64,000 bases of DNA from Candidatus Freyarchaeum deiterrae (lineage in GTDB: Archaea > Asgardarchaeota > Jordiarchaeia > Jordiarchaeales > Jordiarchaeaceae). Under the pieces are notes generated by a model, which saw only the letters and a program-made list of their open reading frames with translations, ran no database searches and was not told the DNA's origin. The stretch's first letter is position 1; each line of letters opens with the position of its first letter. The position numbers and the translations under genes are program-made. Where the stretch lies: positions 32,001-96,000 of the forward strand of contig CP147778.1 of NCBI GenBank assembly GCA_037305845.1, in the 5' to 3' direction. Below are positions 9,299 to 53,123 of this stretch, piece after piece.

Positions 9299-9302
9299 GT
9301 GG

Positions 9303-15866: not shown

Positions 15867-15888
15867 GGGGCACCCTCCAGTGGCTCTG

Positions 15889-32897: not shown

Positions 32898-33500
32898 CTA
32901 GCTTCGTCTACAGATTTTCCAGTATTCGCAATCCGTGCATTTTCCGGAGTTGGGTGTTGGCGGCGGCATTGTTTCTTCTTCCACCATTTTTCTCATCTGA
33001 GTTAGGATTCTGAGTACTGTAAGTTTTGCTTGCGTTGTGATTTCGACTTTTCTTTCTTCATCCGCATCAGTATATCGTATCACTGCGTATCTAACAATAA
33101 CTCCGAAACATACCTCAATTAGCAGTGACTGAGCCACTATCTGAAGATAATGTCCTAGATGTAACTTTTCTGATGCTTCCTTCCCGGTCTTCACATCTAC
33201 TGGAACTATGGTTTCCCCGTCGTACTGGAAGTAGTCCGTTAGAGCGGATAATCCTAACGACTCGGATAGTAAGTAAAAATTATAGTATCGGGTTACATTC
33301 TCTTGTCTTTCGGTCTTTTTTGCTCTGCACTCAACCTCGTGAATTTGTGTGCCTCTATTCATTTTCACCGTAGGGTATACACGTGCTTTGAGTACATATC
33401 TGAAGTAGGGTATTCTTTTGCAATACGCATATTGCCTTATGTCCTCAGCAGTGAAAACCTGTTTCTGTCTTGCTGCTTCCCACGTTTCTATTTGAGTCAT
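32898..33500 (-). CDS. cas4: Cas4
   Basis: YAYCKR, D...PVDVKTG, Q...Q, CTDCEYWKIC. Confidence 0.93.
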   Translation of the reverse strand: MTQIETWEAARQKQVFTAEDIRQYAYCKRIPYFRYVLKARVYPTVKMNRGTQIHEVECRAKKTERQENVTRYYNFYLLSESLGLSALTDYFQYDGETIVPVDVKTGKEASEKLHLGHYLQIVAQSLLIEVCFGVIVRYAVIRYTDADEERKVEITTQAKLTVLRILTQMRKMVEEETMPPPTPNSGKCTDCEYWKICRRS

Positions 33501-33778
33501 TATACCAATACTACCTCCTTTTCCTCTATGTTGTAAAGTTCGGAAACTATAATTTGGTTTTCAATACACCTCTCACACACTGGAAATATTCGTATATCTG
33601 CAAGTTCTCCTCCCACCATGTCTTCCAGTTCTAATGAGAGCATTTCGGCTTTGTTTCTGCTCATTTCTCCTATGAAGACACTTTTCTGTAGGCGTCTTAG
33701 TCCGTATCCGAAGAGTCTGGCTGCTATCTTGGTTCGGAGTCTGTCGTCGGGTACGTCGTAGGTTACTATGTTAATCAT
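33500..33778 (-). CDS. cas2: Cas2
   Basis: VTYDVPDDRLR, RLQKSVF. Confidence 0.96.
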   Translation of the reverse strand: MINIVTYDVPDDRLRTKIAARLFGYGLRRLQKSVFIGEMSRNKAEMLSLELEDMVGGELADIRIFPVCERCIENQIIVSELYNIEEKEVVLV

Positions 33779-34832
33779 TCTGGTTGTCTCCTCCTCCGCC
33801 TGTGGTTCCCCACCATTCGAAGGTGTAGGGGGTGTAGCTCTGAGCTTTTCCTAGGAGGTAGCGTGCGATTTCTCTTGCCTGGTGGAATATCATGTTTTCG
33901 AGGGGTGCTTTTCCTTCGTCTGGTTTCGCCTCGCTTTCCAGTCGGCTGAGTATGGCTTCTATGTACTTTTTCTTAGCATCATCACTGAACAACAGTCTTC
34001 CTTCGGTGTGTTCAAAGTCTTTTGGGGTTAGTGTTCCCTGTGTGAACATGCTTACGGCGGTTCTGTCTACGAGTGGTTGTCTGAATTCTTCTGAGAGGTC
34101 TAGTACTAGGGATGCTTTTCCTGAGCGGTCTGCGTGTAGGAATCCGGCGAATGGTTCCAGTCCGCATGCGGTTACCGCTGCGAGTACTCTGGAGTTGAGT
34201 ATGGTGTATCCTAGGCTGAGTGCTGAGTTGAAGGGGTCTCTGGGTGGTCTTTTCTCTCTTCTCTGGAATCTTATTTCTTCGGGTAGGATTAGTCTTAGGG
34301 CTTGGTAGTATATGCGGGTGGCTTCTGCTTCTAGTCCCATTATCTCGTATCGTTTTTCGGTGATCAGTCCATTATTTATTTCGCTGAGTTTTTCTTGTAC
34401 TCTTTTTATTTCTTGGGTGGCTGCTTCTAGGTGGTCTGCTAGTGTGGGGTCGGTGCGTTTTCTGCTGTTTGCGAAGTAGTTGATTAGTCGGTGCTTGTTG
34501 GTCATTCCGGCGTCCACGAATGTTTTGGCTAGGTGGGTTCCCCTGTGGTCGCCGTAGGCGGTTATCTGTTCTCTGCGTGTGAGTACTGTGCCGTGCATGA
34601 AGAAGCCGTGGAGGAGGGCTATGGGTTTGCCGCCTCCCATGAAGAGTACTGGTACGCCGTTTTCTGCTAGGAGTTTGACGGCTTCGGAGGAGATGCTGGC
34701 GGAGGCGGATACTATGATTTCGGAGAGCTTGACCACGGGTACCTCTTGGAGTTTTTCGCCTCTGCAGGTGATTTTGATGGCTTGCCCCTTTTTTCCTATG
34801 AAGGTTCCGTGGCTGCTTATTTCGATTAGCAT
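33771..34832 (-). CDS. cas1: Cas1
   Basis: MGLEAEA..YY, RPPRDPFNSALSLGY, GFLH, LVLDLSEEFR..VD. Confidence 0.97.
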   Translation of the reverse strand: MLIEISSHGTFIGKKGQAIKITCRGEKLQEVPVVKLSEIIVSASASISSEAVKLLAENGVPVLFMGGGKPIALLHGFFMHGTVLTRREQITAYGDHRGTHLAKTFVDAGMTNKHRLINYFANSRKRTDPTLADHLEAATQEIKRVQEKLSEINNGLITEKRYEIMGLEAEATRIYYQALRLILPEEIRFQRREKRPPRDPFNSALSLGYTILNSRVLAAVTACGLEPFAGFLHADRSGKASLVLDLSEEFRQPLVDRTAVSMFTQGTLTPKDFEHTEGRLLFSDDAKKKYIEAILSRLESEAKPDEGKAPLENMIFHQAREIARYLLGKAQSYTPYTFEWWGTTGGGGDNQND

Positions 34833-34838
34833 TTTTTA

Positions 34839-35738
34839 TTAGTCCTCCTCGCAGATTATCCCTCTCCCCCTCGCAGAGTGAAGGTCGTGGGCAATAAGTT
34901 GGCCGTTAGATTGAAAGTATAGGATGTTTCCTCTCACGTAGACTACTCTTCCGAGCAGGTCTTCGATCTGCCAGGCGTTCACATCTACCGGGAGTTCTGG
35001 ATGTACACCGTAAACTTGGCTTAGGTCGAGTGTGCATACTTCGTGTAGGTCGAATTTTTTTGTGGTTTCTTGGCTTAGCTTTTTTAGCTCTTCGATTTTT
35101 GGGCCTTTTGGGTGGGCGAATTCTTCGGCTTTGTATTCGAATCTTACTCTGGTTTCGAGTCCTAGGGAATCTGCTATGAGTTGTTCTGTTTCTTGGGCGG
35201 TGGTGAGGTTTAGGTTTCCTCTGAGGACTGTGGCGCAGTCTGCTCCCTGTTCTATTAGTCGGTACTTATAACCGTCGGGGGTGCTCCATCTTTCCGCCCG
35301 GGTTACTCCCACTTTGAAGAGTTCTCCGAAGCCCGCTAGATATACTACGTGTTCGTCTCCGCAGTATTGGGCGGCCCAGGGTGAGTCGCATGGTGGGTTG
35401 CTGGGGTTGCAGTGTTGATTGTATGGTGTGCCTGCGCCTTTTGTTACGCATTCAAATCTCTGCACGTTGACGAGACTTGCGCACTCGTCGCAGTACTGAG
35501 CATCTCCAATTGTGGGGTTGAGGCATTCTAGGCAGTATTGTTCTCTGGTGAGCATGAGGGCGTGTTCTCCGAAGAGTGGAGCGCTTCCCAGTCCTAGGGG
35601 TGATAGGATGTCTATGTGCGGTAGGTAGAATCCTAGGAAGGGTCGCCAGCTGTATCCTCTCATTACGAATTGGATATCCTCTTGGAGGATTATTTCTTTA
35701 GTTTGGGGAAATACTATTTGTTGTGAGATTGCTACCAT
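34839..35738 (-). CDS. DUF2797-family Zn-finger protein (GIY-YIG-like core)
   Basis: CLEC..CDEC; HVVYLA...KVGVTR...RLIEQGA. Confidence 0.8.
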   Translation of the reverse strand: MVAISQQIVFPQTKEIILQEDIQFVMRGYSWRPFLGFYLPHIDILSPLGLGSAPLFGEHALMLTREQYCLECLNPTIGDAQYCDECASLVNVQRFECVTKGAGTPYNQHCNPSNPPCDSPWAAQYCGDEHVVYLAGFGELFKVGVTRAERWSTPDGYKYRLIEQGADCATVLRGNLNLTTAQETEQLIADSLGLETRVRFEYKAEEFAHPKGPKIEELKKLSQETTKKFDLHEVCTLDLSQVYGVHPELPVDVNAWQIEDLLGRVVYVRGNILYFQSNGQLIAHDLHSARGRGIICEED

Positions 35739-36027
35739 CTACTTTTTTCCTCCATTTTTTCTCTCGCAAGGACCTTTCTGTCTATATAATCTCTTTGGAA
35801 ACATATAAACATTTTGGAAATATATTTCTATAATTCACTTATAATTCTAAAAATAACCAAAAAAACAGCTTAACAAAAAGAAAAATGAAACACACCACAA
35901 AACACCCACCCCAAACCTTCCCAAAAAATCCCTTCGATGATATATTTCCATTCTAAGGGTTCATTGGGATGATTACAGGGCAGGTTCTAGCTCCATAACG
36001 TTTTTAAATTTCCAATACAATTGCCAT

Positions 36028-36306: not shown

Positions 36307-36758
36307 TTGATGTTGGGGTGCTTGTTATTGCCCACTTCGAAAACCCTGCTAATAAACAAGCACTAAAATTCATTGGGGACGTTCTACTCTGGAAGCGGAG
36401 GTGTCTAGTTCCGACTTCAACTCTCCTAGGTGCATACCATATCCTCACAAGCTACCTAGGTGTTGAAAGAGACTTGGCTTGTAACGCTCTTTCCAAAACG
36501 TTAAAAACACTTTCTCCAGCTTTCTACGAAGATATCACCATAGAACTAGCCTCTGAAGCAATAATAAATGCCACGAGTTACAAGATAGCCTCTTGGGACG
36601 GATACATTATAAGCCTCGCAAGAAGGTATAACGCCCCAATAATATATACTATCGATAGTAAGCTAGCTAGCAAAGTAAAGGACATTCAGATTATTAATCC
36701 AATCCCGGAAGAAACTTTCAAAAAATATAACGAGTGGCTGGAAAGTAAATTAACGTAA
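36258..36758 (+). CDS. PIN domain toxin (start uncertain)
   Basis: IVDVGVLV, SWDGYII, IYTID. Confidence 0.8.
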   Translation: MVLKRVLPEKDRVEGIVDVGVLVIAHFENPANKQALKFIGDVLLWKRRCLVPTSTLLGAYHILTSYLGVERDLACNALSKTLKTLSPAFYEDITIELASEAIINATSYKIASWDGYIISLARRYNAPIIYTIDSKLASKVKDIQIINPIPEETFKKYNEWLESKLT

Positions 36759-36893
36759 AAGAACACCTGCTAACGCTGAATAGCAGACTAACCCAAAAGA
36801 AGAACCACATGGAAACCTACATCGCTTCATTCGATTGACGCGAAATCTTTATTTGTTTCGATGTGTACGGGTTTTATTCGGTGATTCTGGCAT

Positions 36894-37127
36894 ATGGTTG
36901 TAAGTCGAGTGGGTTCGAAGGGAGAACTTTTCCTCCCAAAGGATGTAAGGGAGAAACTTGGGCTTAAACCTAACATGAGGGTGCTTTATAAAGTTGAAGG
37001 GGGAAGATTGTTGGTGGAGCCGGTTCCAAGCCTTGAAGAAGTATTTGAGGAACCTCAGCCTGTTGAGTTAACCTTGGAAGAGTTTCACGAATTTAGAAGA
37101 AAGCTTTCTCGAGAGTCTGAGACTTGA
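36894..37127 (+). CDS. AbrB-family antitoxin
   Basis: VGSKGELFLPKDVREKLGL. Confidence 0.9.
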   Translation: MVVSRVGSKGELFLPKDVREKLGLKPNMRVLYKVEGGRLLVEPVPSLEEVFEEPQPVELTLEEFHEFRRKLSRESET

Positions 37128-37597
37128 GACTTCTGCTTGACACAACTTATTTCCTTCCCGCTATAGGGATCTCTATTAAGAGTTTGGTAGGGAATGCGGT
37201 AATTAAACTGATTTCAGAAGGACAACGGATTCTGATGAGTGAGGTAACCATCTTTGAACTATCCGCTAAGGGAGGCAAGCAAGTAGCCACTAGGAATCTT
37301 GAAGCTGAGAGAGTGGTGAAAGGAATAAGAGCTATTATATATGATGGGCGTATTGAGAGGATTCCTGTACATGATGCATCAATTCTGCTAACTGCGTTCA
37401 AGCTTAGAGAGGTATTAGATGATTTTATTGACTGCATAATCCTTTCATCGGGCATTAACTAAGCTGACGTGCTGATAACTGAGGATAAGGACATCCAAAA
37501 CCTGATGGAGGGAGGAGGGTTTCAAGAGCTCATAGCGGCAATAAATCCTACATTCACAATCAAACCATTAGCAAATGTACTAAAGCCTCATACATAA
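37124..37597 (+). pseudogene. PIN toxin with premature stop
   Basis: LLDTTYFLP...DFIDCII; TAA at 37460, after which the frame continues ADVLITED to 37597. Confidence 0.8.
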
Positions 37598-37691
37598 CGA
37601 ACCAGCTTACAGCGAAGAGCGGAATTGGAAGTTATTACTGGCTTATTTGTCGCATTTCCTTCTTATGGTTACCCAATAGGTCTACGATAAT

Positions 37692-37823
37692 CAACATTCT
37701 CGGTAGACTGCTCTACAGCAAATGAGTACTCGTCCCAAAATTCAAACCACTGGAAAACCAGAACGAAAACCTAACCAACGAGATAGAGTTTCTAATAAAA
37801 TACCCCAGAGAAACCGCATCAGG
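37692..37823 (+). pseudogene. Decayed 'gene X' fragment
   Basis: NILGRLLYSK*VLVPKFKPLENQNENLTNEIEFLIKYP. Confidence 0.75.
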
Positions 37824-38009
37824 CAGGACAGGAATCACGGGTGAAAAATGTTTCGTAGCCAGTGCTTTAATAATTCACATCAAACATGGTATCACTAAAC
37901 ACGCTAAATTACAAAACCCTTCCCCAGATCGTATGATTCTCCATTGGTCAAAAATAATATTGTAAAACTTAATAATGTTGGAAAACTATAGTGATTCTGG
38001 TAAATTGAA

Positions 38010-38255
38010 ATGTCTGAAGAAGTTTCAATTGTTGGAAAAAAATTCATTGTTGTAATACCGAAGAATATTCGGAAGACGCTAGGTATCAAGGAAGGTCAGA
38101 AGATAAGATTCAAAGTTGAGCAAGGCAAAATACACTTAGAACCAATAATTGACCCCTTCGAACTGGCCATTAAAGGATCAAAATTCGCTGAAATAACAGT
38201 TGAAGAATTTGAATCCGAATCCGAGGAAATGCAGAATGAATTCTTCAAGGATTAA
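38010..38255 (+). CDS. AbrB-family antitoxin
   Basis: VGKKFIVVIPKNIRKTLGIKEG. Confidence 0.9.
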   Translation: MSEEVSIVGKKFIVVIPKNIRKTLGIKEGQKIRFKVEQGKIHLEPIIDPFELAIKGSKFAEITVEEFESESEEMQNEFFKD

Positions 38256-38688
38256 AGTACTTCTCGACACCACGTATCTGCTACTTTTTTTGGGCGTGAG
38301 TTAAAGGAAGTCGAAAGTGTTTTAGAAAAGCTTAATCCTTTACCAAGGCGGTAAGATTGAGCCGAACTACTCGCCGTTCAGCCTACTTGAAGCCTTAGGC
38401 AAAATGTCAAAAACACAATTTGACGAAGAAAAACTCAAAAACGGATTAATTTCAATTCTCGAATCAAAAGCATTCGCAGAAGTCTTACCAACATACGACG
38501 GCTACCTAAAAGCCCTAAAACTAAAAGCAGAAGGATTCAAAGACTTTGTCAATCTCTTACTAAACGAAATAGCTACCACAAGAGGCTTAAGGTTGCTAAC
38601 AAGAGACCGTGAAATCATAAAATTCGTACAACCGATGGGATATGGGTTGCTTTTTATCTTTCTATTTCTTCTTTCAGCTTGTTTATAA
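38236..38688 (+). pseudogene. PIN toxin, frameshifted
   Basis: KVLLDTTYLL followed by a stop; downstream fragment ends LLTRD. Confidence 0.75.
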
Positions 38689-39043
38689 TTTCTTCTGCTG
38701 CTTCCAGCATTTCTTCCACTTCTTCTTTTGAGTGGGGGGTAATGGGTCCTGGAGGATAACGCTCGTCATAATAGAATACATTTAGTTTTCTGCCTAGATC
38801 AAGATATTTTTGAAAGGCAACATCAAAATTTGTAGCCTTGGTTATGAGTGATTCTAGGTCGTGTATCTTCTTTAATTTCCAGCCCTTATGGATAAGATAA
38901 GCCTTTAGGTATTTCTCAATGGCTTGATGGATATGAAAAACCGCTACATCAAAATACTTGCTGTCCCTTAGAATTTTTGCGGCGTCTAGGTCATGTTTTC
39001 CTCTTTCCATCCATTCCTTAACTATCTGCTCCTTCGCTTTCAT
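38654..39043 (-). CDS. HEPN domain protein
   Basis: FHIHQAIEKYLKA, KIHDL, ERYP. Confidence 0.9.
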   Translation of the reverse strand: MKAKEQIVKEWMERGKHDLDAAKILRDSKYFDVAVFHIHQAIEKYLKAYLIHKGWKLKKIHDLESLITKATNFDVAFQKYLDLGRKLNVFYYDERYPPGPITPHSKEEVEEMLEAAEEIINKLKEEIER

Positions 39044-39359
39044 ATAGGACTACCCCCTTTTGGATTATCTCCTCTACGAAATCGTCTCCTATTCTGAGGC
39101 GTTCCTCCAGTTCCTCAGGAGTATACACTAAGGGGGATACAGGTATTTCGCGGTTAGGATTGTAAATTATCCTTTTAACGTGTACGACTCTGTCCACTCT
39201 TCTCTCATTAGTTTTTTTCAAAATCAAAAGGTCTATGTCGCTATCTTCTTTAGGATTGCCGTAAGCGTAGGAGCCGAATAGAATAATTTTCAGGGGCTTG
39301 TATTCGTTTTTCAGCTTTTCAACAATCTCGGATAGTATTGCTTTTATCTCTACTTCCAT
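39018..39359 (-). CDS. MNT nucleotidyltransferase
   Basis: ILFGSYAYG...DSDIDLL. Confidence 0.92.
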   Translation of the reverse strand: MEVEIKAILSEIVEKLKNEYKPLKIILFGSYAYGNPKEDSDIDLLILKKTNERRVDRVVHVKRIIYNPNREIPVSPLVYTPEELEERLRIGDDFVEEIIQKGVVLYESEGADS

Positions 39360-39479
39360 CTTTTACCTTCCTCTAGCTTGTATTCTCTATATATTTATAC
39401 GCTTTTAAATTATAAACACTCTCTAATAATATTAATTACAGGAGATTAACGGGTGTAGGTAAAACTCTGGAAGCAGATA

Positions 39480-39513
39480 CTTTCAACCCTCGTTACTGAG
39501 GAGCTTCTTTTGA
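39480..39513 (-). repeat. Solitary CRISPR repeat
   Basis: Reverse complement reads TCAAAAGAAGCTCCTCAGTAACGAGGGTTGAAAG. Confidence 0.88.
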
Positions 39514-39548
39514 CTCATAGATGCCAATTCCTTGATAGGTTAAGAGTA

Positions 39549-39810
39549 CTACGTCAAAATCTTTAAACCAAACTCTGAAAAACCTTTCAAAATGCTTTAA
39601 ATAAAGTGTGTAGAATTAGGTCTTTTGCGATTGCAATTGATGCGATTAGAAAATTTGCGTCTTCAATAGGTTCACCTTTTCTTTTAACGTGTTGTAAAGC
39701 TTACAATAAACCAATAGGAATATTGTGCAAAGGTAGCTATTTCCTAATAACTCAAGCTTTTTGGTTCTTGAGTATTCCACAAGAACGGAGGTGTCAACAA
39801 GTACTCTCTC
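39549..39810 (-). pseudogene. VapC/PIN pseudogene
   Basis: RVLVDTSVLV...LYNTLKEK / GEPIEDA..IASIAI / KHFERF in shifting frames. Confidence 0.75.
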
Positions 39811-39994
39811 TGAACTTGAAGGACTTCCTGAAGCTTTCGGCTTCCTTTTTGAGCTCATCCCAATCGACGCCCTCCACCAGCTCATAGAATTCTTTAAACT
39901 TCTTCTTTTTCTTTAGGTAATTCCGAATTAGCTCCTTAATCTCTTCTTCGGTAACAACATCCGGAACATCAATAACAATTTTTATCCGATTCAC
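39794..39994 (-). CDS. Putative antitoxin
   Basis: 66 aa gene overlapping the PIN remnant. Confidence 0.65.
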   Translation of the reverse strand: MNRIKIVIDVPDVVTEEEIKELIRNYLKKKKKFKEFYELVEGVDWDELKKEAESFRKSFKFRESTC

Positions 39995-40011
39995 ACTCGT
40001 CTAGGAAACTT

Positions 40012-40638
40012 TTATTTCTCCAGTTTCAGCCATATTTCCTCATCTGGGTTATAGCTCCAATTTTTGTAAATGTCCTTCTTGAAGACTTTTAACAGTAGAG
40101 CGATTCCTGCACTGTCGAAGAGAACATCATATCCTTCCAGAATTCCAAAAATTAGGGAGGATTCCAAGTTAAGCATGGCAATGAATCCTTTGAGGGTAAT
40201 GGAATTTATCTCAAAGGCTACCCCATACTTTATGGAAATTTGGTATTCGTCGTCGGCAAGACTCAACGGATTTTCAGAAATAACTAGGAGATCTACATCG
40301 CTTTCCTCATGTGTTTTTCCTTTGGCTACGCTTCCGTAAAGCAGGACGCCTAAGACTTCGGGGTGTTTTTCCACGATTTCATAAGCCGCTATCCAAGCGA
40401 TTTCCTTTAAAGAGGCTACCAGAATACTACGTAACTTATCCCGGTCAATCTGATAGCCGTTGCCACTGATCCTTACTACGCCTAGTCGAAGGAGCTGTTT
40501 TAGTTTTATCGATAGCCATCTCTCGCTTAGACCCGTTTCTCTAAATAGTTCTGAGAAGGACTTTTCTCCATTCGATAAAGCGTGTATAATTCTTCCTTCG
40601 GGTGTGAGTGTGAATAGCTTAAGCACTTGCTTTCTCAT
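40012..40638 (-). CDS. wHTH-fused MNT nucleotidyltransferase
   Basis: KSFSELFRETGLSERWL HTH; LYGSVAKG...SDVDLL. Confidence 0.88.
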   Translation of the reverse strand: MRKQVLKLFTLTPEGRIIHALSNGEKSFSELFRETGLSERWLSIKLKQLLRLGVVRISGNGYQIDRDKLRSILVASLKEIAWIAAYEIVEKHPEVLGVLLYGSVAKGKTHEESDVDLLVISENPLSLADDEYQISIKYGVAFEINSITLKGFIAMLNLESSLIFGILEGYDVLFDSAGIALLLKVFKKDIYKNWSYNPDEEIWLKLEK

Positions 40639-41129
40639 AGTATATCAATTACGAGATTTTGGATTTTAAATTTACTAAGTATAGAAACTTTATCAAGTAC
40701 ATATAATCTTTCAACCAATAAAGGATAGTCAGAATACTGTCACAAGAGTGGAAGCAGTCCATCTAGGGTTGCTAAGGAAGTTGAAGACGCCACCCACCTC
40801 AGCACCTCTAACATCACTAGGCGGCCTAGAGTCCACATACACCTTTTCCAGCTCTTGGAGGTGATGTACACCAAGAGGAGGGGGAGAACAAACTTGAGGA
40901 CTCTTCTTGTGCTTTAGTTGATGGTGGTAGGGTTTCTGCTTACTGTTTCCTTAGGGGGGAGGTGTTAACTTTCCTCAAGTCGAGGATGGAAGTCCTCCAC
41001 GCATAAAGCATACCCTTCCCATAAACCAAAAAACATACATATTACATTGCGCCGTCGATTGTCGATTTACTGTTTTCTGTGCGTTAGGTTTTTTAGTTTA
41101 GGTGGAGAAGTATAGTTACGGTGGCTTTT

Positions 41130-41285
41130 ATGGAGGAGCTTGAGCGTCTGCTCAAGGAGAAAATGAAGATTCTTAAACCCAACGAGTGCGCCGTAATTTA
41201 CGACGACGAGAGAGGACTTCTTATCAGTGTTTGTAATGAGGAAGGGAAGATAAAAATAGTTTCAAAAAAGGTAGATGAACTTTAA
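41130..41285 (+). CDS. Small hypothetical protein (51 aa, not in ORF track)
   Basis: MEELERLLKEKMKILKPNECAVIYDDERGLLISVCNEEGKIKIVSKKVDEL; TAATG overlap with the next ORF. Confidence 0.55.
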   Translation: MEELERLLKEKMKILKPNECAVIYDDERGLLISVCNEEGKIKIVSKKVDEL

Positions 41286-41698
41286 TGATCCTCATTTCCT
41301 CAACCAGACCTAACTACTTTTACTCAGCTAAAAGACACATACTGATAGTAGTCTCGAATCCAACAAGCTTAGAGAGCAGAGTCTTAGGTATTAGAGAACT
41401 CTTAAATTTTGAGGACAGGGAGCTAGCTGAGGCGGCTAGAAGGGTTCTTGAAGCCGCCCTAGAGAAAATAGTTGAACTCGGGGTTCCCTTCATTCTGAGA
41501 GAGATTGGAGTGGAGGTAGATTTTGAGGATCCTTTATGGAGCTACACAGTGTTAACACTGGAAGTGTTTGTTGGGGAGGATCTGTTTGAAACTTTGAGAG
41601 AGAGCGCTGTGAATGCTGCTTACTCTGGTTTAGAGCCTGAAAAAGCTTCGCGGGTGCTGCTGGATGTTCGGCCCTATAGAGTTTCTGAAACCGGCTGA
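41285..41698 (+). CDS. Hypothetical protein, putative HEPN partner
   Basis: Acidic ORF overlapping the HEPN gene; start uncertain. Confidence 0.55.
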   Translation: MILISSTRPNYFYSAKRHILIVVSNPTSLESRVLGIRELLNFEDRELAEAARRVLEAALEKIVELGVPFILREIGVEVDFEDPLWSYTVLTLEVFVGEDLFETLRESAVNAAYSGLEPEKASRVLLDVRPYRVSETG

Positions 41699-41975
41699 AA
41701 AACTGTTAACGTATGACGAGGCAAAAATCAGAACCGCTATTAGTAGGTCTTATTATGCTTCCTTCCTCTACGTGAGGGAAGTTGCTGGTTTAGGAGGATT
41801 AAAGATGCCAAGAGTCCGCAGAGAAGCGGTCCGATTTCTCTATGGGAGGAGACCGTTTGCCGAAAACACCCTCCACCTACTAAGGCAGCGTAGAAACGAT
41901 GCAGACTACGATTTAAAATGTGTATTTTCCATATCCGAAGCAAAGCTATCAGTCAACTACGCGAAAAAATTATAG
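41664..41975 (+). CDS. HEPN (UPF0332-like) protein
   Basis: RTAISRSYYASF, LRQRRNDADY. Confidence 0.82.
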   Translation: MFGPIEFLKPAEKLLTYDEAKIRTAISRSYYASFLYVREVAGLGGLKMPRVRREAVRFLYGRRPFAENTLHLLRQRRNDADYDLKCVFSISEAKLSVNYAKKL

Positions 41976-42138
41976 GCAGCATATAATTCATCGAGTTAAT
42001 TGGAACTTTTACGAGGGGAAAGGATTCGAAAGGAGTGAAATTAGTTTTGGCTCATAATTTATTGGTGGAGAGTCGAGTTTGCTACAAAAATGTGGGCCTT
42101 TTTACTCGTGGTGGTTTCAGCCGGGTTTTCACAAAGAG

Positions 42139-42564
42139 TTACGGGCAGTGGTTTTCCACGAATTCGTTTAGCTTAGCAACTTTCAATTCGTTCACGTTTT
42201 TCCACTCTTTTTCGTACTGTTTCTCTCCTCCAGTAACCAGAACATCCGACTCTGTGGCGATGGCTGTTGAAAGGATTACGGCATCGGCTAGAGAGAAGCG
42301 GTACTTGGTCTTTAGGAGACCGGCTTTGAAGGCTACTCCTAACGTTAAGGGATTCTGTATCAGAGGGACGCTGTTTATGTAGGCAAACTGAATGCGAGCT
42401 TCTTTATCTCCGTAAAGCCGGCTTATTACGTTAACTAGTTCAGCCATCGTAATAACACTTATATGGGTTTCAAAAAGAGTTTTTGCGGCTTCAAGAACCC
42501 TTTCAGCATAGTTGTTCTCTTTATACTTCTCCACCAAAACCCATGTGTCTAGAAAAACTCTCAC
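42139..42564 (-). CDS. vapC: PIN toxin
   Basis: VFLDTWVL, TMAEL, FSLADAVILSTA, LVTG. Confidence 0.9.
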   Translation of the reverse strand: MRVFLDTWVLVEKYKENNYAERVLEAAKTLFETHISVITMAELVNVISRLYGDKEARIQFAYINSVPLIQNPLTLGVAFKAGLLKTKYRFSLADAVILSTAIATESDVLVTGGEKQYEKEWKNVNELKVAKLNEFVENHCP

Positions 42565-42818
42565 TGTGACAACTCCTTGGAAAAGCCTTCGGCACGCTTC
42601 TCTTCTTTTCTTCTCTCTTCTTCCAGTAGCCCTTCCAATCTTTCGGCTCTCGGCAGTCTCATAGCTTTAACAACATCATCGGGAAGGGGGATAACAAGGA
42701 TTGTGCCGTCTGGTAAGGCTTCAACTCTTAGGCGCTGCCCTACTTTTAATCCAAGCTTCTCCCTTACTCCCTTGGGGATTATCATCTGCCCCTTAGAGGA
42801 AAGCACTACATCAGTCAT
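42561..42818 (-). CDS. AbrB-family antitoxin
   Basis: LSSKGQMIIPKGVREKLGL; inverted repeat TTCTTAC..GTAAGAA at its start. Confidence 0.9.
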   Translation of the reverse strand: MTDVVLSSKGQMIIPKGVREKLGLKVGQRLRVEALPDGTILVIPLPDDVVKAMRLPRAERLEGLLEEERRKEEKRAEGFSKELSQ

Positions 42819-43114
42819 TCTTACCATCAACAAAAATGTAAGAAAAAAAGAATATAAGTCTTTCCAACCCACTTTTTCCCAGAATTGTGAACTTTTTGAT
42901 ATTTAGGGGTTCAACTGGGTGGACAGAATCAGTCGATAACGCCTCTTTTTTAGGGCTTCAAAGCGCGAAAAAAACTATACGAACGCTTCTTTTCGATACT
43001 CGTCAAAACTATTCTTCACCACTCCGCACAGCTTACCATAATAACTCGAAAATAACCATAAAAGAAACAAACTGTCCAAAACTGAATGAGGTAGTCGAAG
43101 AAGAAGGTAAAGCG

Positions 43115-43229: not shown

Positions 43230-44792
43230 TTAATAGATGAGCTTTGTTCCCGTTCCTCCGTGTTGTGTGCGTCTAATTCTTATTTCGGTCACTATGGGGT
43301 GCTGGGTAGCTACTCCTGAGGCTATGGCTATACCGTTGGGCAGAAGCGGTATACGTCCAATGTCATCCGTACTTGAATAGTCGAGGTAGGGTTTGAGGTA
43401 TTCCAGGTCGTAGTTTCCTTCTATGCGTAGTATTATTTTTGTTCCACACTGGCTTAAAATGTCTTTGTCCAATCCAGCGATTCTCTGACTGGTGATACAC
43501 AGTCCTAATCCGAACTTTCTTCCCTCGCGGGCTATTTTGCGCATCTGTCTCCTGCTGTAAGTGTTAGTTTCCTGGGGTGCGAAGCGGTGGCTCTCCTCCA
43601 CCACCACTAGTGCGGGCGGAATGGTGCCTCTTTTTCGGGCTTGGAAGACTTTTTGGAGCGCGACGCCTGCAATTATTCTTCTTACCCTCTCGTCCATGTC
43701 TTCGCTCAAATCGATTATGCTTAGAACCCCGGGTTTGACGATGTCGCTAGTGTTGAAGCCTTCTCCAAATATGCCCAGCTCTCTCAGAACCATTATCCTC
43801 CTCACTGTTGAGAGGACTGTGTTTTTCTGAAATTTCCACTCTTCAGCCGCATCCTCCACTGCCTCAGTTAGAGTTTCGGGGTCGTAGGATTGCTTATCCA
43901 CACTCAGCCTCTTCATTGCTAGGAAGAGGAGGTCGGACTGGACATCACTCATTCCGCAGATTTCGCTTATGGCGTAGGCGTCCAAATCACTCATATTTAT
44001 GGTGAGTTCGCTTCCACCGTTTTTGCCCAAGCCTTTGGGAAAATAGCTGACCGCCCTGTAGCCCTTGGGGGTAATCCCAAACTCTGGGGAGCGTTCAATC
44101 TCCTCCGGATTCTTGTTCGGCTGCCTGAATGTGTTGTACTCTCCGTGGGGGTCGATAACCAGTACTGGAAGATTCTTCTCCAAGAGTTCCTCTATGAGCA
44201 CTCCCACCGCGTAGGATTTTCCGCTTCCAGTGGCTCCCAAAACGGCTACATGGTGTCTCACCAGCTTATCGGGATCCAACAATACCTTTATAGCGTTGTT
44301 TCCCCTCATCAAACCGATGTAGAGTCCGTCGCTGGGCAATCCCAAAAAGCGGTTGAGCAGTTTGGTATCCGCTCGGTAAACGATGTTGCCAGGCTCTGGA
44401 GCGTCCTCCGGGGGAAGTATTCTCTCGTTCTTAACTAGTCCCACCACTTTGACTCGTGCCACTCTCCATCTGCTGGACCTCGTGGGGAATCTTGAGTCTA
44501 CTGTTATTCCGCGGGTAATGTGATACTTAACAAATTCGGGATCCGTGTAGTACTCGTTGTAAGCTTGAATGGTGGAAACTCGGCCTACGAGTACACTGAG
44601 CCCCAGGGGCACCTCAACGTATTCCCCTACCTTTACTTCGGATTCCTCCGCTATTTGAAAATTAAAATTCAGGTGATTAGGAGTGTTTCCCTCACAGATG
44701 ATGACTCCCAAATCCGACTTGTTTTCCCCCTTAGGGGTATGGTTTTCATTTTCACTACTCTTTCTTTGCATCCTCTTTTTTCCTCCCTGCAC
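43230..44792 (-). CDS. herA: HerA-family ATPase/translocase with HAS barrel
   Basis: VGEYV HAS barrel; HVAVLGATGSGKS; DPHGEY; VEESHRF; AREGRKFG; SQR. Confidence 0.92.
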   Translation of the reverse strand: MQGGKKRMQRKSSENENHTPKGENKSDLGVIICEGNTPNHLNFNFQIAEESEVKVGEYVEVPLGLSVLVGRVSTIQAYNEYYTDPEFVKYHITRGITVDSRFPTRSSRWRVARVKVVGLVKNERILPPEDAPEPGNIVYRADTKLLNRFLGLPSDGLYIGLMRGNNAIKVLLDPDKLVRHHVAVLGATGSGKSYAVGVLIEELLEKNLPVLVIDPHGEYNTFRQPNKNPEEIERSPEFGITPKGYRAVSYFPKGLGKNGGSELTINMSDLDAYAISEICGMSDVQSDLLFLAMKRLSVDKQSYDPETLTEAVEDAAEEWKFQKNTVLSTVRRIMVLRELGIFGEGFNTSDIVKPGVLSIIDLSEDMDERVRRIIAGVALQKVFQARKRGTIPPALVVVEESHRFAPQETNTYSRRQMRKIAREGRKFGLGLCITSQRIAGLDKDILSQCGTKIILRIEGNYDLEYLKPYLDYSSTDDIGRIPLLPNGIAIASGVATQHPIVTEIRIRRTQHGGTGTKLIY

Positions 44793-46230
44793 GCTTTAGG
44801 CGTCTTAGGTCTCGTGTTCTTTGAAGCTCGTCCCACATGCCCATCAGTCCTGCTTTAAGCGAACCCTTAACCGCTCTCATTAGCTGCTCCAGATTAACCA
44901 CAGCCACATTTTTCGCCGAGGAAACCACGCTAGGACCCCCCTCGAATCGGGTTCTCAGTGGAATGGATGAGAGGCTGAAGGCTAGGTCTGCAATCTGTTT
45001 CTGATCCTCAAGCGGGTTCTTCGAAACGAACTCGTACTTGGTGACCAAAGGTTTCTTCATAACGTAGAACTCGTAATTGTCCTCAGTAGGGGGCTTATCC
45101 TTCTCGTGTCCCCTATCTATCAGGCAGGTGGTGTCTCCGTCCTCCAAAACCATGGAGAGGAAATTCAGGTCGTTGGTTGAACCTATCTCCTGCCCCAAGA
45201 CTCTACGGACTATTTTGAAGAAAAAGTTATCCATAGATATGGGCACCACACCCACCGGGATTACTCCACTATTTTTCGCGGTTTCAAGAAATTTGTAGTA
45301 TAGCTCGTGGCACCGGTCTCTCAAACGCACCAACTCTTTTGAGTAAACCATAAATCCGTGCGGGGCTAGTGAACCCAGTTTGAAGTAGACCCGGAACTTG
45401 TCACTGTGCTCCTCAATCATCTCCATTGCCAACCTATAGTGCTGAATCTCCCTCAGGTAACGGGCGGCGATACTCCTACCAGCTTCCAAAAGCTCCGGAA
45501 AATCAGTCGACATCTCAAAGAACGGCTCCCCCTCCACGAACGGCTCAAACCCCCCATAAGAGTGAAGATCTGGAATGTAGTGGGACAGAGACTTGCTCTG
45601 ATCCAAGATGTTTTTGTCAAAAAAACCCAGATACGCGCCACTACTCAGAGCAACCACAGAGAGCAGGGAAAAATCGAGAAGCGCCCAGTGCTCCAATCTA
45701 TGAGCGGAAGCCGAGCCGCAAACAAAAACATTGTCCAAAACTAGGTCCCGCGCATACTTTGACAAAACTAGAGTTTCACCAAGCAAACGATCCGCATACT
45801 CCGTGTCCTCCACCCTAACCCCAGACAGCCTCTCCCTAACCTCGCCCCCCAGTATCTTGGGAAAATCGAGTTTTTCCAGAAGCCGGCGAACCTTATCCGA
45901 AACCGAAATCAGCTCCGCCTGAGCAGCAATATCCTGACCCACAAAGTCCTCGACTAGCACGGCGGACTTGGGTTCAAAGAGCAGCTCGCTCGTCACATCG
46001 TCGATTCTGCTGGTATTCACCCGATACCTTCCCGCTCCCTCATAGGCTAGAACATCTAGGTTTGAGAGGTCGTCCAGATAATCTTTAACCGAGCGCTCGG
46101 TTAGATCCACTTTATCAGCCAAGGAGGCTACATTCACCACTCCCTGCTCCGTGAATACTTCCAAGCAGGCGTTTAGAATGAGCGTCAGTCTCGCACGGTA
46201 GGTTGACCCGGTCCGCCCCATCTTAATCAC
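44755..46230 (-). CDS. wHTH fused to NurA-like domain with substituted catalytic residues
   Basis: N-terminal wHTH; NurA-like motif order CGSAS / KLGSL / GVVP / DLNFL..L.DG / FYV / GGP...AK; overlaps herA. Confidence 0.75.
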   Translation of the reverse strand: MIKMGRTGSTYRARLTLILNACLEVFTEQGVVNVASLADKVDLTERSVKDYLDDLSNLDVLAYEGAGRYRVNTSRIDDVTSELLFEPKSAVLVEDFVGQDIAAQAELISVSDKVRRLLEKLDFPKILGGEVRERLSGVRVEDTEYADRLLGETLVLSKYARDLVLDNVFVCGSASAHRLEHWALLDFSLLSVVALSSGAYLGFFDKNILDQSKSLSHYIPDLHSYGGFEPFVEGEPFFEMSTDFPELLEAGRSIAARYLREIQHYRLAMEMIEEHSDKFRVYFKLGSLAPHGFMVYSKELVRLRDRCHELYYKFLETAKNSGVIPVGVVPISMDNFFFKIVRRVLGQEIGSTNDLNFLSMVLEDGDTTCLIDRGHEKDKPPTEDNYEFYVMKKPLVTKYEFVSKNPLEDQKQIADLAFSLSSIPLRTRFEGGPSVVSSAKNVAVVNLEQLMRAVKGSLKAGLMGMWDELQRTRDLRRLKRAGRKKEDAKKE

Positions 46231-46675
46231 TTCACTCTATATCCAAATCCGAAGTATATTTCAAATCTGTATAATTATATCCACAAAAACAATATAAACA
46301 CACCGACAACACAAAACAAACCTTCAAAAAACAAAAAAAACAGCAAACAAAAAACCCTAAACCACTATAAAAACAGCAGCAACTAAAAAATTAAATGAAA
46401 AACTGAAAAAATAAAACCTGAACACCATATCACTTCCACCAGAAATTAAGGGGAACCTAAAACAGTGAAAAAGCCGCAAAACACCCCGAAAAACTAAAAA
46501 ACCACGCAAAACATCCAAAAAATCCGCTAAGAAAAAAAATAGAATAGAAAAACGAAAACCAAAACTATCAAAATCCAGAAAGCAGAAACCAGATTTCCCA
46601 AAGTCTAAACAACATAAAGGAGATATACTACATACTCAGAAAAGCCGAAGAAGGCATAACAAACCCTTTCGATTA

Positions 46676-46784
46676 CTCGAACACATTTATAAAGAGCATG
46701 CATTTTTCCTAGTGTTCGAGTGAAACCTCCCAAAAGAAGCTTTTATAAGCCTATAAACCCAAAAATAAGTAATATAATATAACC
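46676..46784 (+). promoter_or_regulatory. Main CRISPR leader
   Basis: AT-rich; BRE/TATA-like CAAAAGAAGCTTTTATAA about 45 bp before repeat 1; 9-bp inverted repeat CTCGAACAC/GTGTTCGAG. Confidence 0.85.
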
Positions 46785-49700
46785 CTTGCAAAAGAAGTTC
46801 CTCAGTAACGAGGATTGAAAGTACCACGTATTCGGAGCATAGTTAGCATTATAACCGCTTGCAAAAGAAGTTCCTCAGTAACGAGGATTGAAAGAAAAAT
46901 TGGATGAAGTGCTAGTCGAAATTGAATTAATACTTGCAAAAGAAGTTCCTCAGTAACGAGGATTGAAAGTAATATCCTTCTACAGCACCATAAGGTGTGA
47001 TATTTCCTTGCAAAAGAAGTTCCTCAGTAACGAGGATTGAAAGATGACTGAGTAGTAGAGCAACTGCATCTCGTTGTTACTTGCAAAAGAAGTTCCTCAG
47101 TAACGAGGATTGAAAGGAACCTCTCCGCTCCAAACCCAAAAAGTAGCTGAAACCACTTGCAAAAGAAGTTCCTCAGTAACGAGGATTGAAAGAAGGATAA
47201 AACTGCAATAAAAGAGGAAATGATTAACTTGCAAAAGAAGTTCCTCAGTAACGAGGATTGAAAGAACAAAAGAAAAGATACATATTCGTTAAAGGCAGCA
47301 ACTTGCAAAAGAAGTTCCTCAGTAACGAGGATTGAAAGTTCCCCGACGATGCGACTGAAAGCCGAACATTAACACATCTTGCAAAAGAAGTTCCTCAGTA
47401 ACGAGGATTGAAAGCAAGAAACAGACCTTGTAGATTCATGGATACTTATCCCTTGCAAAAGAAGTTCCTCAGTAACGAGGATTGAAAGTATTTTAAGGTT
47501 CGAACGCAGGGACCGGAGCGTGTTCCTCTTGCAAAAGAAGTTCCTCAGTAACGAGGATTGAAAGGTCAAGGTAAGTTCTAGGATTCTTACTGGTGAAAAG
47601 CTTGCAAAAGAAGTTCCTCAGTAACGAGGATTGAAAGACAGAAAAAAAAGAGATTATTTTATGAACTCCTAAAACTTGCAAAAGAAGTTCCTCAGTAACG
47701 AGGATTGAAAGGACCTAAAAGGTAGGTCTAAAATCTTGATCAAAAACGTCTTGCAAAAGAAGTTCCTCAGTAACGAGGATTGAAAGTATTATTCTACATA
47801 TATATGACCTAACGTAATACAGCTTGCAAAAGAAGTTCCTCAGTAACGAGGATTGAAAGTTTACGATATTCAAACTAAACGATTTAGGAAATCCAACTTG
47901 CAAAAGAAGTTCCTCAGTAACGAGGATTGAAAGTATCTTTTCTAAATCTTCCCTCTTAAAAAAGGGCTTAAACCTTGCAAAAGAAGTTCCTCAGTAACGA
48001 GGATTGAAAGGATCCCAGCCCGCGCTGAAAAGCACTAAATAGAATATTACTTGCAAAAGAAGTTCCTCAGTAACGAGGATTGAAAGTAATAGACTTTGAT
48101 TAGGAATTAGATTATTTAAGCTAGGACTTGCAAAAGAAGTTCCTCAGTAACGAGGATTGAAAGCCTTTCAGGAGATTAGACCCAACCGAAAGCATTGAGC
48201 GGGGCTTGCAAAAGAAGTTCCTCAGTAACGAGGATTGAAAGGAATAGAGCGGTTAGGACTCCGCCTGCAATTCCCAGCTTGCAAAAGAAGTTCCTCAGTA
48301 ACGAGGATTGAAAGTAGCCCCGATACCGCAGGTGAGACCGCAAGAGTCGAACTTGCAAAAGAAGTTCCTCAGTAACGAGGATTGAAAGTCAACGTTTTCT
48401 TACAATTCAAACCTTCTCTATCACAACTTGCAAAAGAAGTTCCTCAGTAACGAGGATTGAAAGTTCCGAGTAACACCACCAGTTATCGCAAAATGATTCT
48501 TGTCTTGCAAAAGAAGTTCCTCAGTAACGAGGATTGAAAGAACTTTAACTCGATTAGAGATCCAAGGGACCCAGTTCCTTGCAAAAGAAGTTCCTCAGTA
48601 ACGAGGATTGAAAGTGGTGGCGACAAGTCTCACCGCAGAAACTGTTCGGAAACTTGCAAAAGAAGTTCCTCAGTAACGAGGATTGAAAGTATCTAATGCG
48701 TCAAATCCACCTAAAACAAATTCTAACTTGCAAAAGAAGTTCCTCAGTAACGAGGATTGAAAGTCTCAGCCGAATGCGTGGGATTTAATAACGAAGAAGA
48801 AACTTGCAAAAGAAGTTCCTCAGTAACGAGGATTGAAAGATTTAACAGAAACGATGAAGCAAAAGCGTACATTAACTTGCAAAAGAAGTTCCTCAGTAAC
48901 GAGGATTGAAAGTCATCGGTTAGTGAGATTACTAGTTATTTAGATTTTGCTTGCAAAAGAAGTTCCTCAGTAACGAGGATTGAAAGGAGAAGTCTTTATG
49001 CTTCCTGATCCAAACTACTTTTTACTTGCAAAAGAAGTTCCTCAGTAACGAGGATTGAAAGTCTTCTCCAGCTTCAGCGCAAACGCGGTTTTATGGAGCA
49101 CTTGCAAAAGAAGTTCCTCAGTAACGAGGATTGAAAGACGAATAATAGGAGATGAGAAACGTGAGCAGAATAGCTTGCAAAAGAAGTTCCTCAGTAACGA
49201 GGATTGAAAGTCATCTCGATAAGCTCCTTTAATGAATTGATACTTCACTTGCAAAAGAAGTTCCTCAGTAACGAGGATTGAAAGTTAGAGGATGTAGCAA
49301 TCAAGAAGACCCTCAGTAAACTTGCAAAAGAAGTTCCTCAGTAACGAGGATTGAAAGCAAAAAATGCGATAATAATGAAGCTGTTTCTAAAACTCTTGCA
49401 AAAGAAGTTCCTCAGTAACGAGGATTGAAAGAATTATTAGAATTAGGAGCAAAAACAACCTGTCCCGACTTGCAAAAGAAGTTCCTCAGTAACGAGGATT
49501 GAAAGGTAATGAGACAATAAACTTGGAGATTTACGATAAAGCTTGCAAAAGAAGTTCCTCAGTAACGAGGATTGAAAGTCACATCCTCCTCACCCTCATC
49601 CGCCCCACAGTACCCGCCTTGCAAAAGAAGTTCCTCAGTAACGAGGATTGAAAGTAAAAACAGAGGAACTTTTGAAGCCTCTGCTTGTTGAAACTTGCAA

Positions 49701-52630
49701 AAGAAGTTCCTCAGTAACGAGGATTGAAAGTTTATGTTGGGAATATTCACTCGTAAACCTAAAAGAAACTTGCAAAAGAAGTTCCTCAGTAACGAGGATT
49801 GAAAGACATGTCACCGGAACAGTACGCCGGAAAAGAGAGCGCTTGCAAAAGAAGTTCCTCAGTAACGAGGATTGAAAGTCCTTCTCCTTTTCTGGGTCCT
49901 TGTACATTTTCTTGCTTGCAAAAGAAGTTCCTCAGTAACGAGGATTGAAAGGGTATGATTGTGGAGCGGGTTATGGATGAGCGGGGACTTGCAAAAGAAG
50001 TTCCTCAGTAACGAGGATTGAAAGCTGTATAGAAGTAGCTTGTATATTGCGCCACATACCTGAACTTGCAAAAGAAGTTCCTCAGTAACGAGGATTGAAA
50101 GCAAAATAGGCGCCCTAAAATCACAACTCAGTTTTTAACTTGCAAAAGAAGTTCCTCAGTAACGAGGATTGAAAGTTAATTCGCTTAGTTGACAGATATA
50201 GACGTGTTTATCTTGCAAAAGAAGTTCCTCAGTAACGAGGATTGAAAGGGTATTCCAACCGCATATACTATCTCCGTTAAGTTCACTTGCAAAAGAAGTT
50301 CCTCAGTAACGAGGATTGAAAGTAACCAAGAATGTTCCGGTGAGTGATATTCAATCATTCTTGCAAAAGAAGTTCCTCAGTAACGAGGATTGAAAGTACA
50401 CGTACCAAGTGGAACCCAGAAACAGGAGCAGAAGCTTGCAAAAGAAGTTCCTCAGTAACGAGGATTGAAAGGGATTAGCTCCGCTAAGAGTATCTGAGTA
50501 TTACACACCACTTGCAAAAGAAGTTCCTCAGTAACGAGGATTGAAAGTGTTCCATTAAAATCACCAAGAATAAAAGAACAAATAGCTTGCAAAAGAAGTT
50601 CCTCAGTAACGAGGATTGAAAGTAATTTCTTTCATATTTTTCACCATTTTCTTTTTTTAACTTGCAAAAGAAGTTCCTCAGTAACGAGGATTGAAAGAGA
50701 AACGAGTTGAACAGATCGCAACTAGAAGCCCTCACTTGCAAAAGAAGTTCCTCAGTAACGAGGATTGAAAGTTCTTTTTGAAAAATATCCCACGAATCTT
50801 TATCTGATGCTTGCAAAAGAAGTTCCTCAGTAACGAGGATTGAAAGTGTTGTTTCTCTAAGTATTCTATACGGTTTTTTAATCTTGCAAAAGAAGTTCCT
50901 CAGTAACGAGGATTGAAAGTGTTATGCTGATTTCCTTTATATGGCAACAAAAATAGCTTGCAAAAGAAGTTCCTCAGTAACGAGGATTGAAAGAATAGGT
51001 CATGGGTACACCTTAAATAAAGGTGTACTCTTCTTGCAAAAGAAGTTCCTCAGTAACGAGGATTGAAAGACTACTAGACCACGAAATAATCTACAAGGAC
51101 AAACAACTTGCAAAAGAAGTTCCTCAGTAACGAGGATTGAAAGAAAGAAATTGATGTGAAGGAAAGAATCAAGGAATGCACTTGCAAAAGAAGTTCCTCA
51201 GTAACGAGGATTGAAAGGTTTGGGGGCTGATTAATACCGCAACATTTCTAGTGGGCTTGCAAAAGAAGTTCCTCAGTAACGAGGATTGAAAGGATTCTTG
51301 GACATTCCAAGCGGGATGGAACATGACAAGCTCTTGCAAAAGAAGTTCCTCAGTAACGAGGATTGAAAGATGCCTATAATTACGAAGACTAAAATAAGAC
51401 TTAAGATACTTGCAAAAGAAGTTCCTCAGTAACGAGGATTGAAAGATTTACTTCTGGTTCTTTGTAGTAGGTTACAGAGTTGTACTTGCAAAAGCAGTTC
51501 CTCAGTAACGAGGATTGAAAGTAGTAAATTGGTTTTTTCTCAATCTCATTATATTTCAACTTGCAAAAGAAGTTCCTCAGTAACGAGGATTGAAAGACTC
51601 CGTGCCCTATTCCCCACGGTGGATCCGTTGCACAACTTGCAAAAGAAGTTCCTCAGTAACGAGGATTGAAAGACGGTGAACGGTCACAGTCCCTCGACCG
51701 CTGTTCAGGTCTTGCAAAAGAAGTTCCTCAGTAACGAGGATTGAAAGCATAAGACTACCCATAAGATTCTCGCTAACACTAGACACTTGCAAAAGAAGTT
51801 CCTCAGTAACGAGGATTGAAAGTAATGGACCAATCTGTTCTTTGAGAGAATTTAGTAACTTGCAAAAGAAGTTCCTCAGTAACGAGGATTGAAAGCTTTT
51901 CTTTCACGAAACGTACTTGATTCTACGTAATAGCTTGCAAAAGAAGTTCCTCAGTAACGAGGATTGAAAGTTGCGCTTTTAATGCAGGATAAAAGGGATT
52001 TGACTACTTGCAAAAGAAGTTCCTCAGTAACGAGGATTGAAAGGATCCTCCGTGACTATGTGTTTGAATTTTTCTTTCTGCCTTGCAAAAGAAGTTCCTC
52101 AGTAACGAGGATTGAAAGGTTAAATGCTCTTGACGATTCATCGTGGGGTGCTTGGGCTTGCAAAAGAAGTTCCTCAGTAACGAGGATTGAAAGTCAAGTC
52201 AATCTTGGAGCTTCAAGGATTTGAATTACTCTTGCAAAAGAAGTTCCTCAGTAACGAGGATTGAAAGTCAGGGTTATCGAACTGAAGGTCCTTGCAGACC
52301 TCCTTGCAAAAGAAGTTCCTCAGTAACGAGGATTGAAAGTCCAACTGCGGCAGCTTGTTCGTGGCCATAATTATTTCTTGCAAAAGAAGTTCCTCAGTAA
52401 CGAGGATTGAAAGATTTTCTTCGTTATGCAGTTGAAGAACATGGAGTGAGTCTTGCAAAAGAAGTTCCTCAGTAACGAGGATTGAAAGTGTACCTATTAC
52501 GCGTGGGAGGGATGCTTTTTGGGACTTGCAAAAGAAGTTCCTCAGTAACGAGGATTGAAAGTATATTTTCATCCTCCTATTCGGTTCTTAAATATTCGCA
52601 CTTGCAAAAGAAGTTCCTCAGAAACGAGGA
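46785..52630 (+). CRISPR. CRISPR array 2 (about 79 repeats, 78 spacers)
   Basis: CTTGCAAAAGAAGTTCCTCAGTAACGAGGATTGAAAG with about 74-bp period; terminal repeat at 52601 is degenerate. Confidence 0.99.
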
Positions 52631-52647: not shown

Positions 52648-53123
52648 TTACAGAACTTCATCAAGACTTTCAACTGGAGAATAGAATCCCATTTTTATCA
52701 TTTCTGATAGTAAATGATTCCCCTGTTCCTTCGTAACAATTTTTTTGTCTACCGCTAAAACCAGTATACCGATTGTACCCGATACGGGGACACTAAGTTT
52801 TTGGGCGTGTCTTCTTGCGTCCCAATCATCGGTGAGTATTTTGAAGCCTCTGGTTTTTGCAACAGCTATGCAGGATGCTTCTCCTTTTCCTAATTTTTCA
52901 GCAAGTTTGTAGAAAAGCTCTGTTTCTTCTGAATTCATTTCTAAAATGTTTATTCGGCCCCATTCTGCGTCTGGGGTAACGCCTCTTTCTATTCCAAATT
53001 TTATTTCTTCGACTACTTCGCGAGTAGTGTATAGAGATTTACCACGGCTTTTTGAAGTATGTTCAATCTTTTGGTAAGTAGAAAATTTGAAATAACAGTA
53101 GTGTTTGCAATCACTTTTCCCAT
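52648..53123 (-). pseudogene. PIN/DUF3368-like toxin, frameshifted
   Basis: MGKVIANTTVISNF... shifts near 53030 into LGKGEASCI, LTDD..AR, GTIGIL. Confidence 0.8.

Follow-up and report, generated by a model that had tools for sequence, protein, structure and literature searches.

How does a cell decide when to begin acquiring new spacers? This is an open question: the signal that induces Csa3a has been described as unknown (PMC5587795), and the herA-nurA pairs linked to CRISPR loci have been listed in publications from 2012 onwards with no mechanism assigned. According to a 2026 review, Asgard NurA proteins have their catalytic residues in place and await characterisation (PMC13748450). The locus analysed here raises the question of what a NurA protein does beside a CRISPR array when its active site is substituted, a winged helix-turn-helix domain (wHTH) is fused to it and its HerA partner is intact. 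We use nurA* as shorthand for this wHTH-fused, catalytically substituted gene, which was found in a stretch of 64,000 nucleotides, called the window in the following (G000 C1:32001-96000, G000 being the single-contig 3.58-Mb genome that holds it). A sequence-only reading of the window had interpreted the pair as a repurposed, DNA-targeted translocase, possibly acting in spacer acquisition or defence, with emphasis on the adjacent CRISPR leader.

The CRISPR island

The closest homologues are found in Jordarchaeia/Freyarchaeia Asgard archaea. The CRISPR island in the window comprises two cas10-led type III modules (one of them III-C), type I-B genes, a cas4-cas2-cas1 cassette headed by a DUF2797 gene and many toxin-antitoxin pairs, followed by herA, nurA* and an array of 78 repeats (Table 1). 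As proposed from the letters, nurA* is divergent from the leader of this main array. Dense MazE/AbrB-PIN and nucleotidyltransferase-HEPN toxin-antitoxin pairs (36028-42872 and 52648-53404) flank nurA*-herA together with the array.

The final 160 bp of the intergenic region before the main array are similar to the leader of a second array, which has 79 repeats. An inverted repeat with 10-bp arms is common to both leaders (46670-46725 in the window and about C1 2680750), and the two arrays have no spacer in common. A mini-array at 8130 is preceded by a partial leader copy, and degenerate repeats, single or double, are scattered between inserted genes at 5320-16420, which suggests a fragmented array. 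A 302-aa ORF after cas3 (25740-26648, minus strand) gave no match in PADLOC; a homologue of it sits divergent from DUF2797 in G237.

Table 1. Coordinates of the nurA*-herA locus, the main array and the adaptation operon in the window
Feature	Position	Strand	Description
cas4	32898..33500	-	
cas2 (92 aa)	33500..33778	-	between cas1 and cas4; orthologous position holds Pfam-labelled Cas2 in L057/L058
cas1	33771..34832	-	
DUF2797-family gene	34839..35738	-	head of adaptation operon; Cys-rich, weakly GIY-YIG-like core
palindromic operator candidate 2	35816..35829	.	6 bp upstream of TATA-like box of adaptation operon, abutting BRE position
herA	43230..44792	-	Walker A/B and Arg finger intact, HAS barrel weak; start probably ATG 44771
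nurA*	44755..46230	-	wHTH (about residues 8-87) and substituted NurA domain (about 109-470)
palindromic operator candidate 1	46250..46263	.	28 bp before nurA* start, downstream of TATA-like box
intergenic region	46231..46784	+	nurA* promoter and AT-rich CRISPR leader
main CRISPR array	46785..52561	+	78 repeats of 37 bp

A NurA fold with a substituted active site

The nurA* ORF comprises 491 aa, with Met4 as its probable start (ATG at 46221). Searches with the single sequence against Pfam, PADLOC, NCBIfam and the PDB returned no NurA match, and the NurA identity is visible only by profiles and fold. An AlphaFold model built from a 38-row alignment (pLDDT 85) has NurA of S. solfataricus as its best structural match (2ygk; Z 20.9, rmsd 3.8, 276 aligned), followed by four further NurA-family structures with Z 13-14, and the profile alignment (HH-align) of the family with canonical Asgard NurA gave P=99.8. 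Residues 9-87 resemble IclR/PefI-type wHTHs in the structure search (Z about 10). Both the NurA character and the N-terminal wHTH of the earlier reading are thereby confirmed.

By HH-align, the motif I Asp corresponds to C171, the alpha-A Glu to H264, the motif II Asp to L285, the Lys of the GVVK motif to about P330 and the motif III His to K440, and the position of SsoNurA Y298 is taken by G431/G432. The loss of the two Asp and the His had already been noticed from the sequence; the Glu and the Lys are replaced as well. The S. solfataricus equivalents are D58, E116, D133 and K202, single changes of which inactivate the enzyme (PMC3326311). In the family-wide alignment the motif I Asp and the alpha-A Glu are present in 0/38 members each, the motif II Asp in 3/38 and the motif III His in 1/38, the Lys being likewise lost; the loss is thus old and family-wide rather than a local decay. 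Another set of residues is kept in the family, namely R257, E239, the His of a PHG motif (H291), D334 and D354, and R257, E239, H291 and D334 are predicted to lie near the former active site. In sum, nurA* belongs to the NurA nucleases by its fold and departs from them in the catalytic D/E/D, K202, Y298 and His. As far as sequence can tell, this supports a NurA that is not a nuclease.

The product would form a toroidal homodimer that binds HerA; a homodimer co-fold scored 0.00 and was counted neither for nor against a dimer. R46 and Y51 in the recognition helix of the wHTH do not vary in any of the 41 proteins compared, as expected where the DNA target is conserved. The RNA runs yielded a single 250-nt contig within nurA* (44802-45051), too little to indicate transcription or its starts.

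The HerA partner and other nurA/herA copies

The herA ORF of 520 aa has a DUF87 core, intact Walker A (186), Walker B (396) and Arg-finger motifs (421), and a HAS barrel whose match is below the Pfam cut-off (E 3e-4). These motifs are intact across 31 partner HerAs, one of which is truncated, and herA follows nurA* in every locus of sufficient length. The overlap of the two genes, noted earlier, amounts to 38 nt as ORFs and to 17 nt if herA begins at its likely ATG. In S. solfataricus, HerA together with the nuclease-dead NurA D58A acts as a translocase that loads at DNA ends and unwinds DNA in an ATP-dependent manner (PMC3326311), so that free DNA ends are a likely input for the pair described here.

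The earlier statement that mre11/rad50 are not adjacent also holds, as neither gene occurs in the window and nurA*-herA is thus no canonical repair operon. The canonical nurA-herA-mre11-rad50 cluster of the genome is located at C1:3.023-3.033 Mb. Including the copy in this cluster, the genome has five further NurA genes with Pfam hits (C1:578409-580334, 895051-896262, 2076561-2077727, 2605207-2606331 and 3022933-3024066), and DNA repair is therefore independent of the nurA* copy. Each of the five adjoins a HerA-like gene, which comes first in one pair, and the 641-aa member appears to carry an internal HTH-like insertion.

Distribution of the family and its linkage to CRISPR loci

The nurA* family has about 40 representatives in several Asgard lineages, Bathyarchaeia and Thermoprotei. 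Among them are Infirmifilum lucidum, a cultured organism, and Infirmifilum sp. NZ; the pair is present in the complete I. lucidum genome (herA WP_192818788.1). Most cas1-bearing Asgard genomes are without the family.

The suggested CRISPR association is reflected in the neighbourhoods. Counting by hand in the retrieved flanks, with 2 ambiguous loci and about 9 that were too short, we found cas genes or repeats beside nurA*-herA in 35 loci and clearly none in two (G070, G111), compared with 0/24 loci of other NurAs. The usual neighbours are cas6 and an adaptation cassette, whose first gene is DUF2797 in Asgard archaea and csa1 in Thermoprotei. Four loci (L085, L142, L143, L153) have the order nurA*-herA-csa1-cas1-cas2-cas4, the cassette coming immediately after herA in the same orientation. 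The back-to-back placement with a leader is confined to close relatives (G038, L112, L116), with a loose variant, 4 kb away, in L081. In other loci the pair mostly sits on the trailer side of the array, as in L062, L065, L067, L071 and L078, judged by repeat orientation.

Another group of NurA proteins, about 500 aa long and probably with an HTH at the N-terminus, was detected (L091:9591-11090, L092, L094, L095, L097, L099). It keeps both motif Asp residues and the Lys, has the PH motif in common with nurA* and has neither herA nor cas neighbours; it is possibly an intermediate state. Clusters of the ESM Atlas with 664-719 aa, mostly cyanobacterial hypothetical proteins, are similar to the model of nurA* with its wHTH (TM about 0.6) and could be a bacterial counterpart.

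A palindromic site common to nurA* and the adaptation operon

The candidate operator upstream of nurA* is a 14-bp palindrome with the consensus GGAAATATATTTCC. In 30/39 loci it lies no more than 70 bp from nurA* (shuffle mean 1.3, maximum 7), 9-33 bp before the start; in bins farther from the gene the number was 3-4. A TATA-like box is located just upstream of the site in 12 loci and just downstream in 2, which is the position of a repressor site. About 8 divergent family members are without it. In one subclade (L077, L081, L120, L121, L142) a half or degenerate site lies about 50 bp before nurA*, upstream of TATA, which suggests a changed autoregulation.

A site matrix was trained solely on nurA* upstream regions. 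Its best match in the 3.58-Mb genome falls in the promoter of DUF2797-cas1-cas2-cas4; it lies 8.4 kb beyond the herA start and scores 19.9, a level reached by 0-1 matches in shuffled genomes. Where nurA* is present, the site precedes the DUF2797-led operon in 13/15 cases, some of them on other contigs; these are 12/12 GTDB genomes with nurA* plus L078, and it is absent in the carriers L069 (score 8.2) and L077. Among genomes without detected nurA* it occurs in 1/9, the exception being G104, a MAG of 90% completeness from the same genus as a nurA* carrier. In five Thermoprotei carriers (L148, L150, L151, L154, G721) the site is found before csa1, compared with 0/30 csa1 operons scoring 12 or more in Thermoprotei without nurA*. 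It is missing before csa1 where this gene trails herA in one operon (L085, L142, L143, L153), and also before the other csa1 operons of two carriers (G588, G702). As the genomes are related, all these counts overstate independence, as do p-values, and represent about 7 Asgard lineages plus the Thermofilaceae. In G070, nurA*-herA is far from any cas gene and has the site at its own promoter; a perfect site also lies before the DUF2797-cas1 operon, which is on a different contig, and this arrangement suggests that the regulator acts in trans.

In the genome studied here, the site is absent from the leaders of the three large arrays (best scores 5.9-7.9), from the majority of the other cas promoters (11.3 at cas8b) and from the promoters of the other nurA/herA paralogues (4.9 or less). 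The geometry at the adaptation operon differs between lineages. At Asgard promoters the site usually ends 5-9 bp before the TATA-like box, as does the one from which Csa3a activates (PMC4333418), whereas in Thermofilaceae it lies at the csa1 start codon in a repressor-like position. The direction of regulation can for this reason only be proposed.

Many Asgard genomes have the DUF2797 gene in place of csa1 ahead of cas1-cas2-cas4, whether they carry nurA* or not. A fold search gave weak matches to GIY-YIG proteins (Slx1, I-TevI, UvrC; Z 3.7-4.8), and the protein is a candidate for an undescribed adaptation nuclease.

Comparison with known systems

Canonical NurA-HerA of S. solfataricus (PMC3326311) and T. 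kodakarensis (PMC12977600) has the RNase H-like fold, the ATPase motifs and the overlapping genes in common with nurA*-herA. The canonical pair, however, has the catalytic D/E/D, K and H and linked mre11/rad50, where nurA* is substituted and extended by a wHTH. The Cas NurA of Thermoproteales (PMC3396285, PMC3973734, PMC6546367; PADLOC PDLC01055/01056) is likewise paired with herA without mre11/rad50, is located beside CRISPR arrays and cas genes and was proposed to have a role in adaptation. Unlike nurA*, it has about 340 aa and no wHTH, and it keeps the motif I Asp, the Glu, the motif II Asp and the GVVK Lys. Neither PDLC01056 nor the nurA* family detects the other (HH-align P=0.5); nurA* agrees with Cas NurA in the CRISPR linkage together with herA, while the model, the size, the active site and the lack of a wHTH all disagree. 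On these sequence comparisons the nurA* family is distinct from the catalytically intact Thermoproteales Cas-NurA. In a quick HerA tree the partners of the two are united only through a very long branch, and a common origin of both CRISPR-linked families is at most possible. In the part of the NurA/HerA and Asgard CRISPR literature that was covered, we found the nurA* family described nowhere.

In regulatory design the family resembles Csa3a/Csa3b, in which a wHTH is fused to a non-catalytic domain and a palindrome next to BRE/TATA of csa1-cas1-cas2-cas4 is bound (PMC4333418, PMC5587795). For nurA*, which has the same kind of fusion and a palindrome at the adaptation promoter, such binding is proposed. 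The sensor domain of Csa3 is a CARF domain and its input cyclic oligoadenylate; in nurA* the corresponding domain is NurA and the predicted input would be DNA ends, delivered by the partner translocase. The palindrome also differs in sequence from the Csa3a/Csa3b site. The combination of CARF and wHTH that defines Csa3 is lacking in nurA*, which Csa3/CasR models match weakly. Csn2, an adaptation accessory of type II-A CRISPR, has a fold unrelated to that of NurA and is not known to have an ATPase partner or an operator. It may be regarded as a functional analogue, being a non-catalytic toroid that binds DNA ends (PMC3695520).

Discussion

Since the probable operator of the wHTH is common to nurA* and the cas1 operon, transcription regulation becomes our primary reading of this locus. 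Of the earlier interpretation, the non-nuclease, the intact translocase and the link to adaptation stand, and the leader emphasis is given up, as adjacency is limited to close relatives and the three leaders lack the site. We consider it rather probable that nurA* is a pseudo-nuclease turned sequence-specific transcription regulator of CRISPR adaptation, with a DNA-end input coupled through HerA. A NurA-like dimer would bind the two-fold palindrome through its wHTHs. It would repress its own operon from the site between TATA and start codon, and would control the spacer-acquisition operon, activator-like in Asgard archaea, where the site abuts BRE/TATA, and repressor-like in Thermofilaceae, where it overlaps the start. 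HerA, which probably senses DNA ends, would load onto free ends and drive DNA into the ring of non-cutting NurA*. By this pumping NurA* would be placed on its operators or released from them, and adaptation would be induced when linear or broken DNA, for example viral ends, appears. More tentatively, and at somewhat under an even chance, a machine for processing DNA ends may have been converted to signalling as such, HerA feeding ends to the dead NurA ring and the wHTHs switching on cas1-cas2-cas4.

The main rival is a prespacer-supply motor of RecBCD- or Csn2-like type, in which HerA-NurA* would capture and unwind foreign DNA ends without destroying them and pass them to Cas4/Csa1/DUF2797 and Cas1-Cas2, the wHTH merely synchronising expression with cas1. 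The co-operonic order with csa1-cas1-cas2-cas4 in the four loci named above fits such a motor, dead NurA supports unwinding by HerA (PMC3326311), and HerA-NurA was proposed earlier as a prespacer supplier (PMC3396285, PMC5587795). It is compatible with the regulator but leaves the wHTH and the retention of the site at an adaptation promoter in trans (G070) unexplained; moreover, as the family is missing from most cas1-bearing Asgard genomes, it is dispensable for adaptation. We regard this motor as unlikely. A nuclease with a rebuilt His/Asp site is less probable still. It would use H264, which occupies the catalytic Glu position, H291 (37/38), D334 (35/38) and E239 (acidic in 38/38). Yet H264 varies (R, Q, L, K, T), the canonical residues including the Lys are lost in nearly all of the family, and D58A or K202A by itself abolishes the activity of SsoNurA (PMC3326311).

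A different regulator might also be what binds the palindrome, acting on nurA*-herA as well as on the cas1 operon, since in Sulfolobus Csa3a directly activates both csa1-cas1 and herA/nurA promoters (PMC5587795, PMC4333418). The occurrence of the site in G104 without detected nurA* would agree with this, but we find it quite improbable: no Csa3 was found in the genome, where matches are confined to the HTH part, the site tracks nurA* across two phyla, the paralogue promoters are without it and no further regulator recurs next to nurA*-herA. A local ArsR-HTH-nucleotidyltransferase (40012-40638) was rejected as the protein that binds the site, since its recurrence is limited to close relatives. 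Finally, the wHTH could bring HerA to the CRISPR leader and aid integration, as the divergent arrangement here and in close relatives might imply. The placement is, however, unconserved among loci, the leaders are without the site and two other large arrays of the genome have no adjoining nurA*; leader binding was rejected on the first two of these grounds, and a targeting of this kind seems hardly credible.

With the regulator as the preferred explanation, the nurA* family provides a named protein, a named candidate operator and named candidate target promoters, and nurA*-herA offers a testable regulatory mechanism for CRISPR adaptation. The hypothesis is directly testable because the pair is present in the complete genome of Infirmifilum lucidum. 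If the more tentative conversion to signalling is true, a motor-driven sensor of linear foreign DNA would trigger adaptation without cyclic oligoadenylate, and such a sensor would be present in Asgard archaea as well as in cultured Thermofilaceae.
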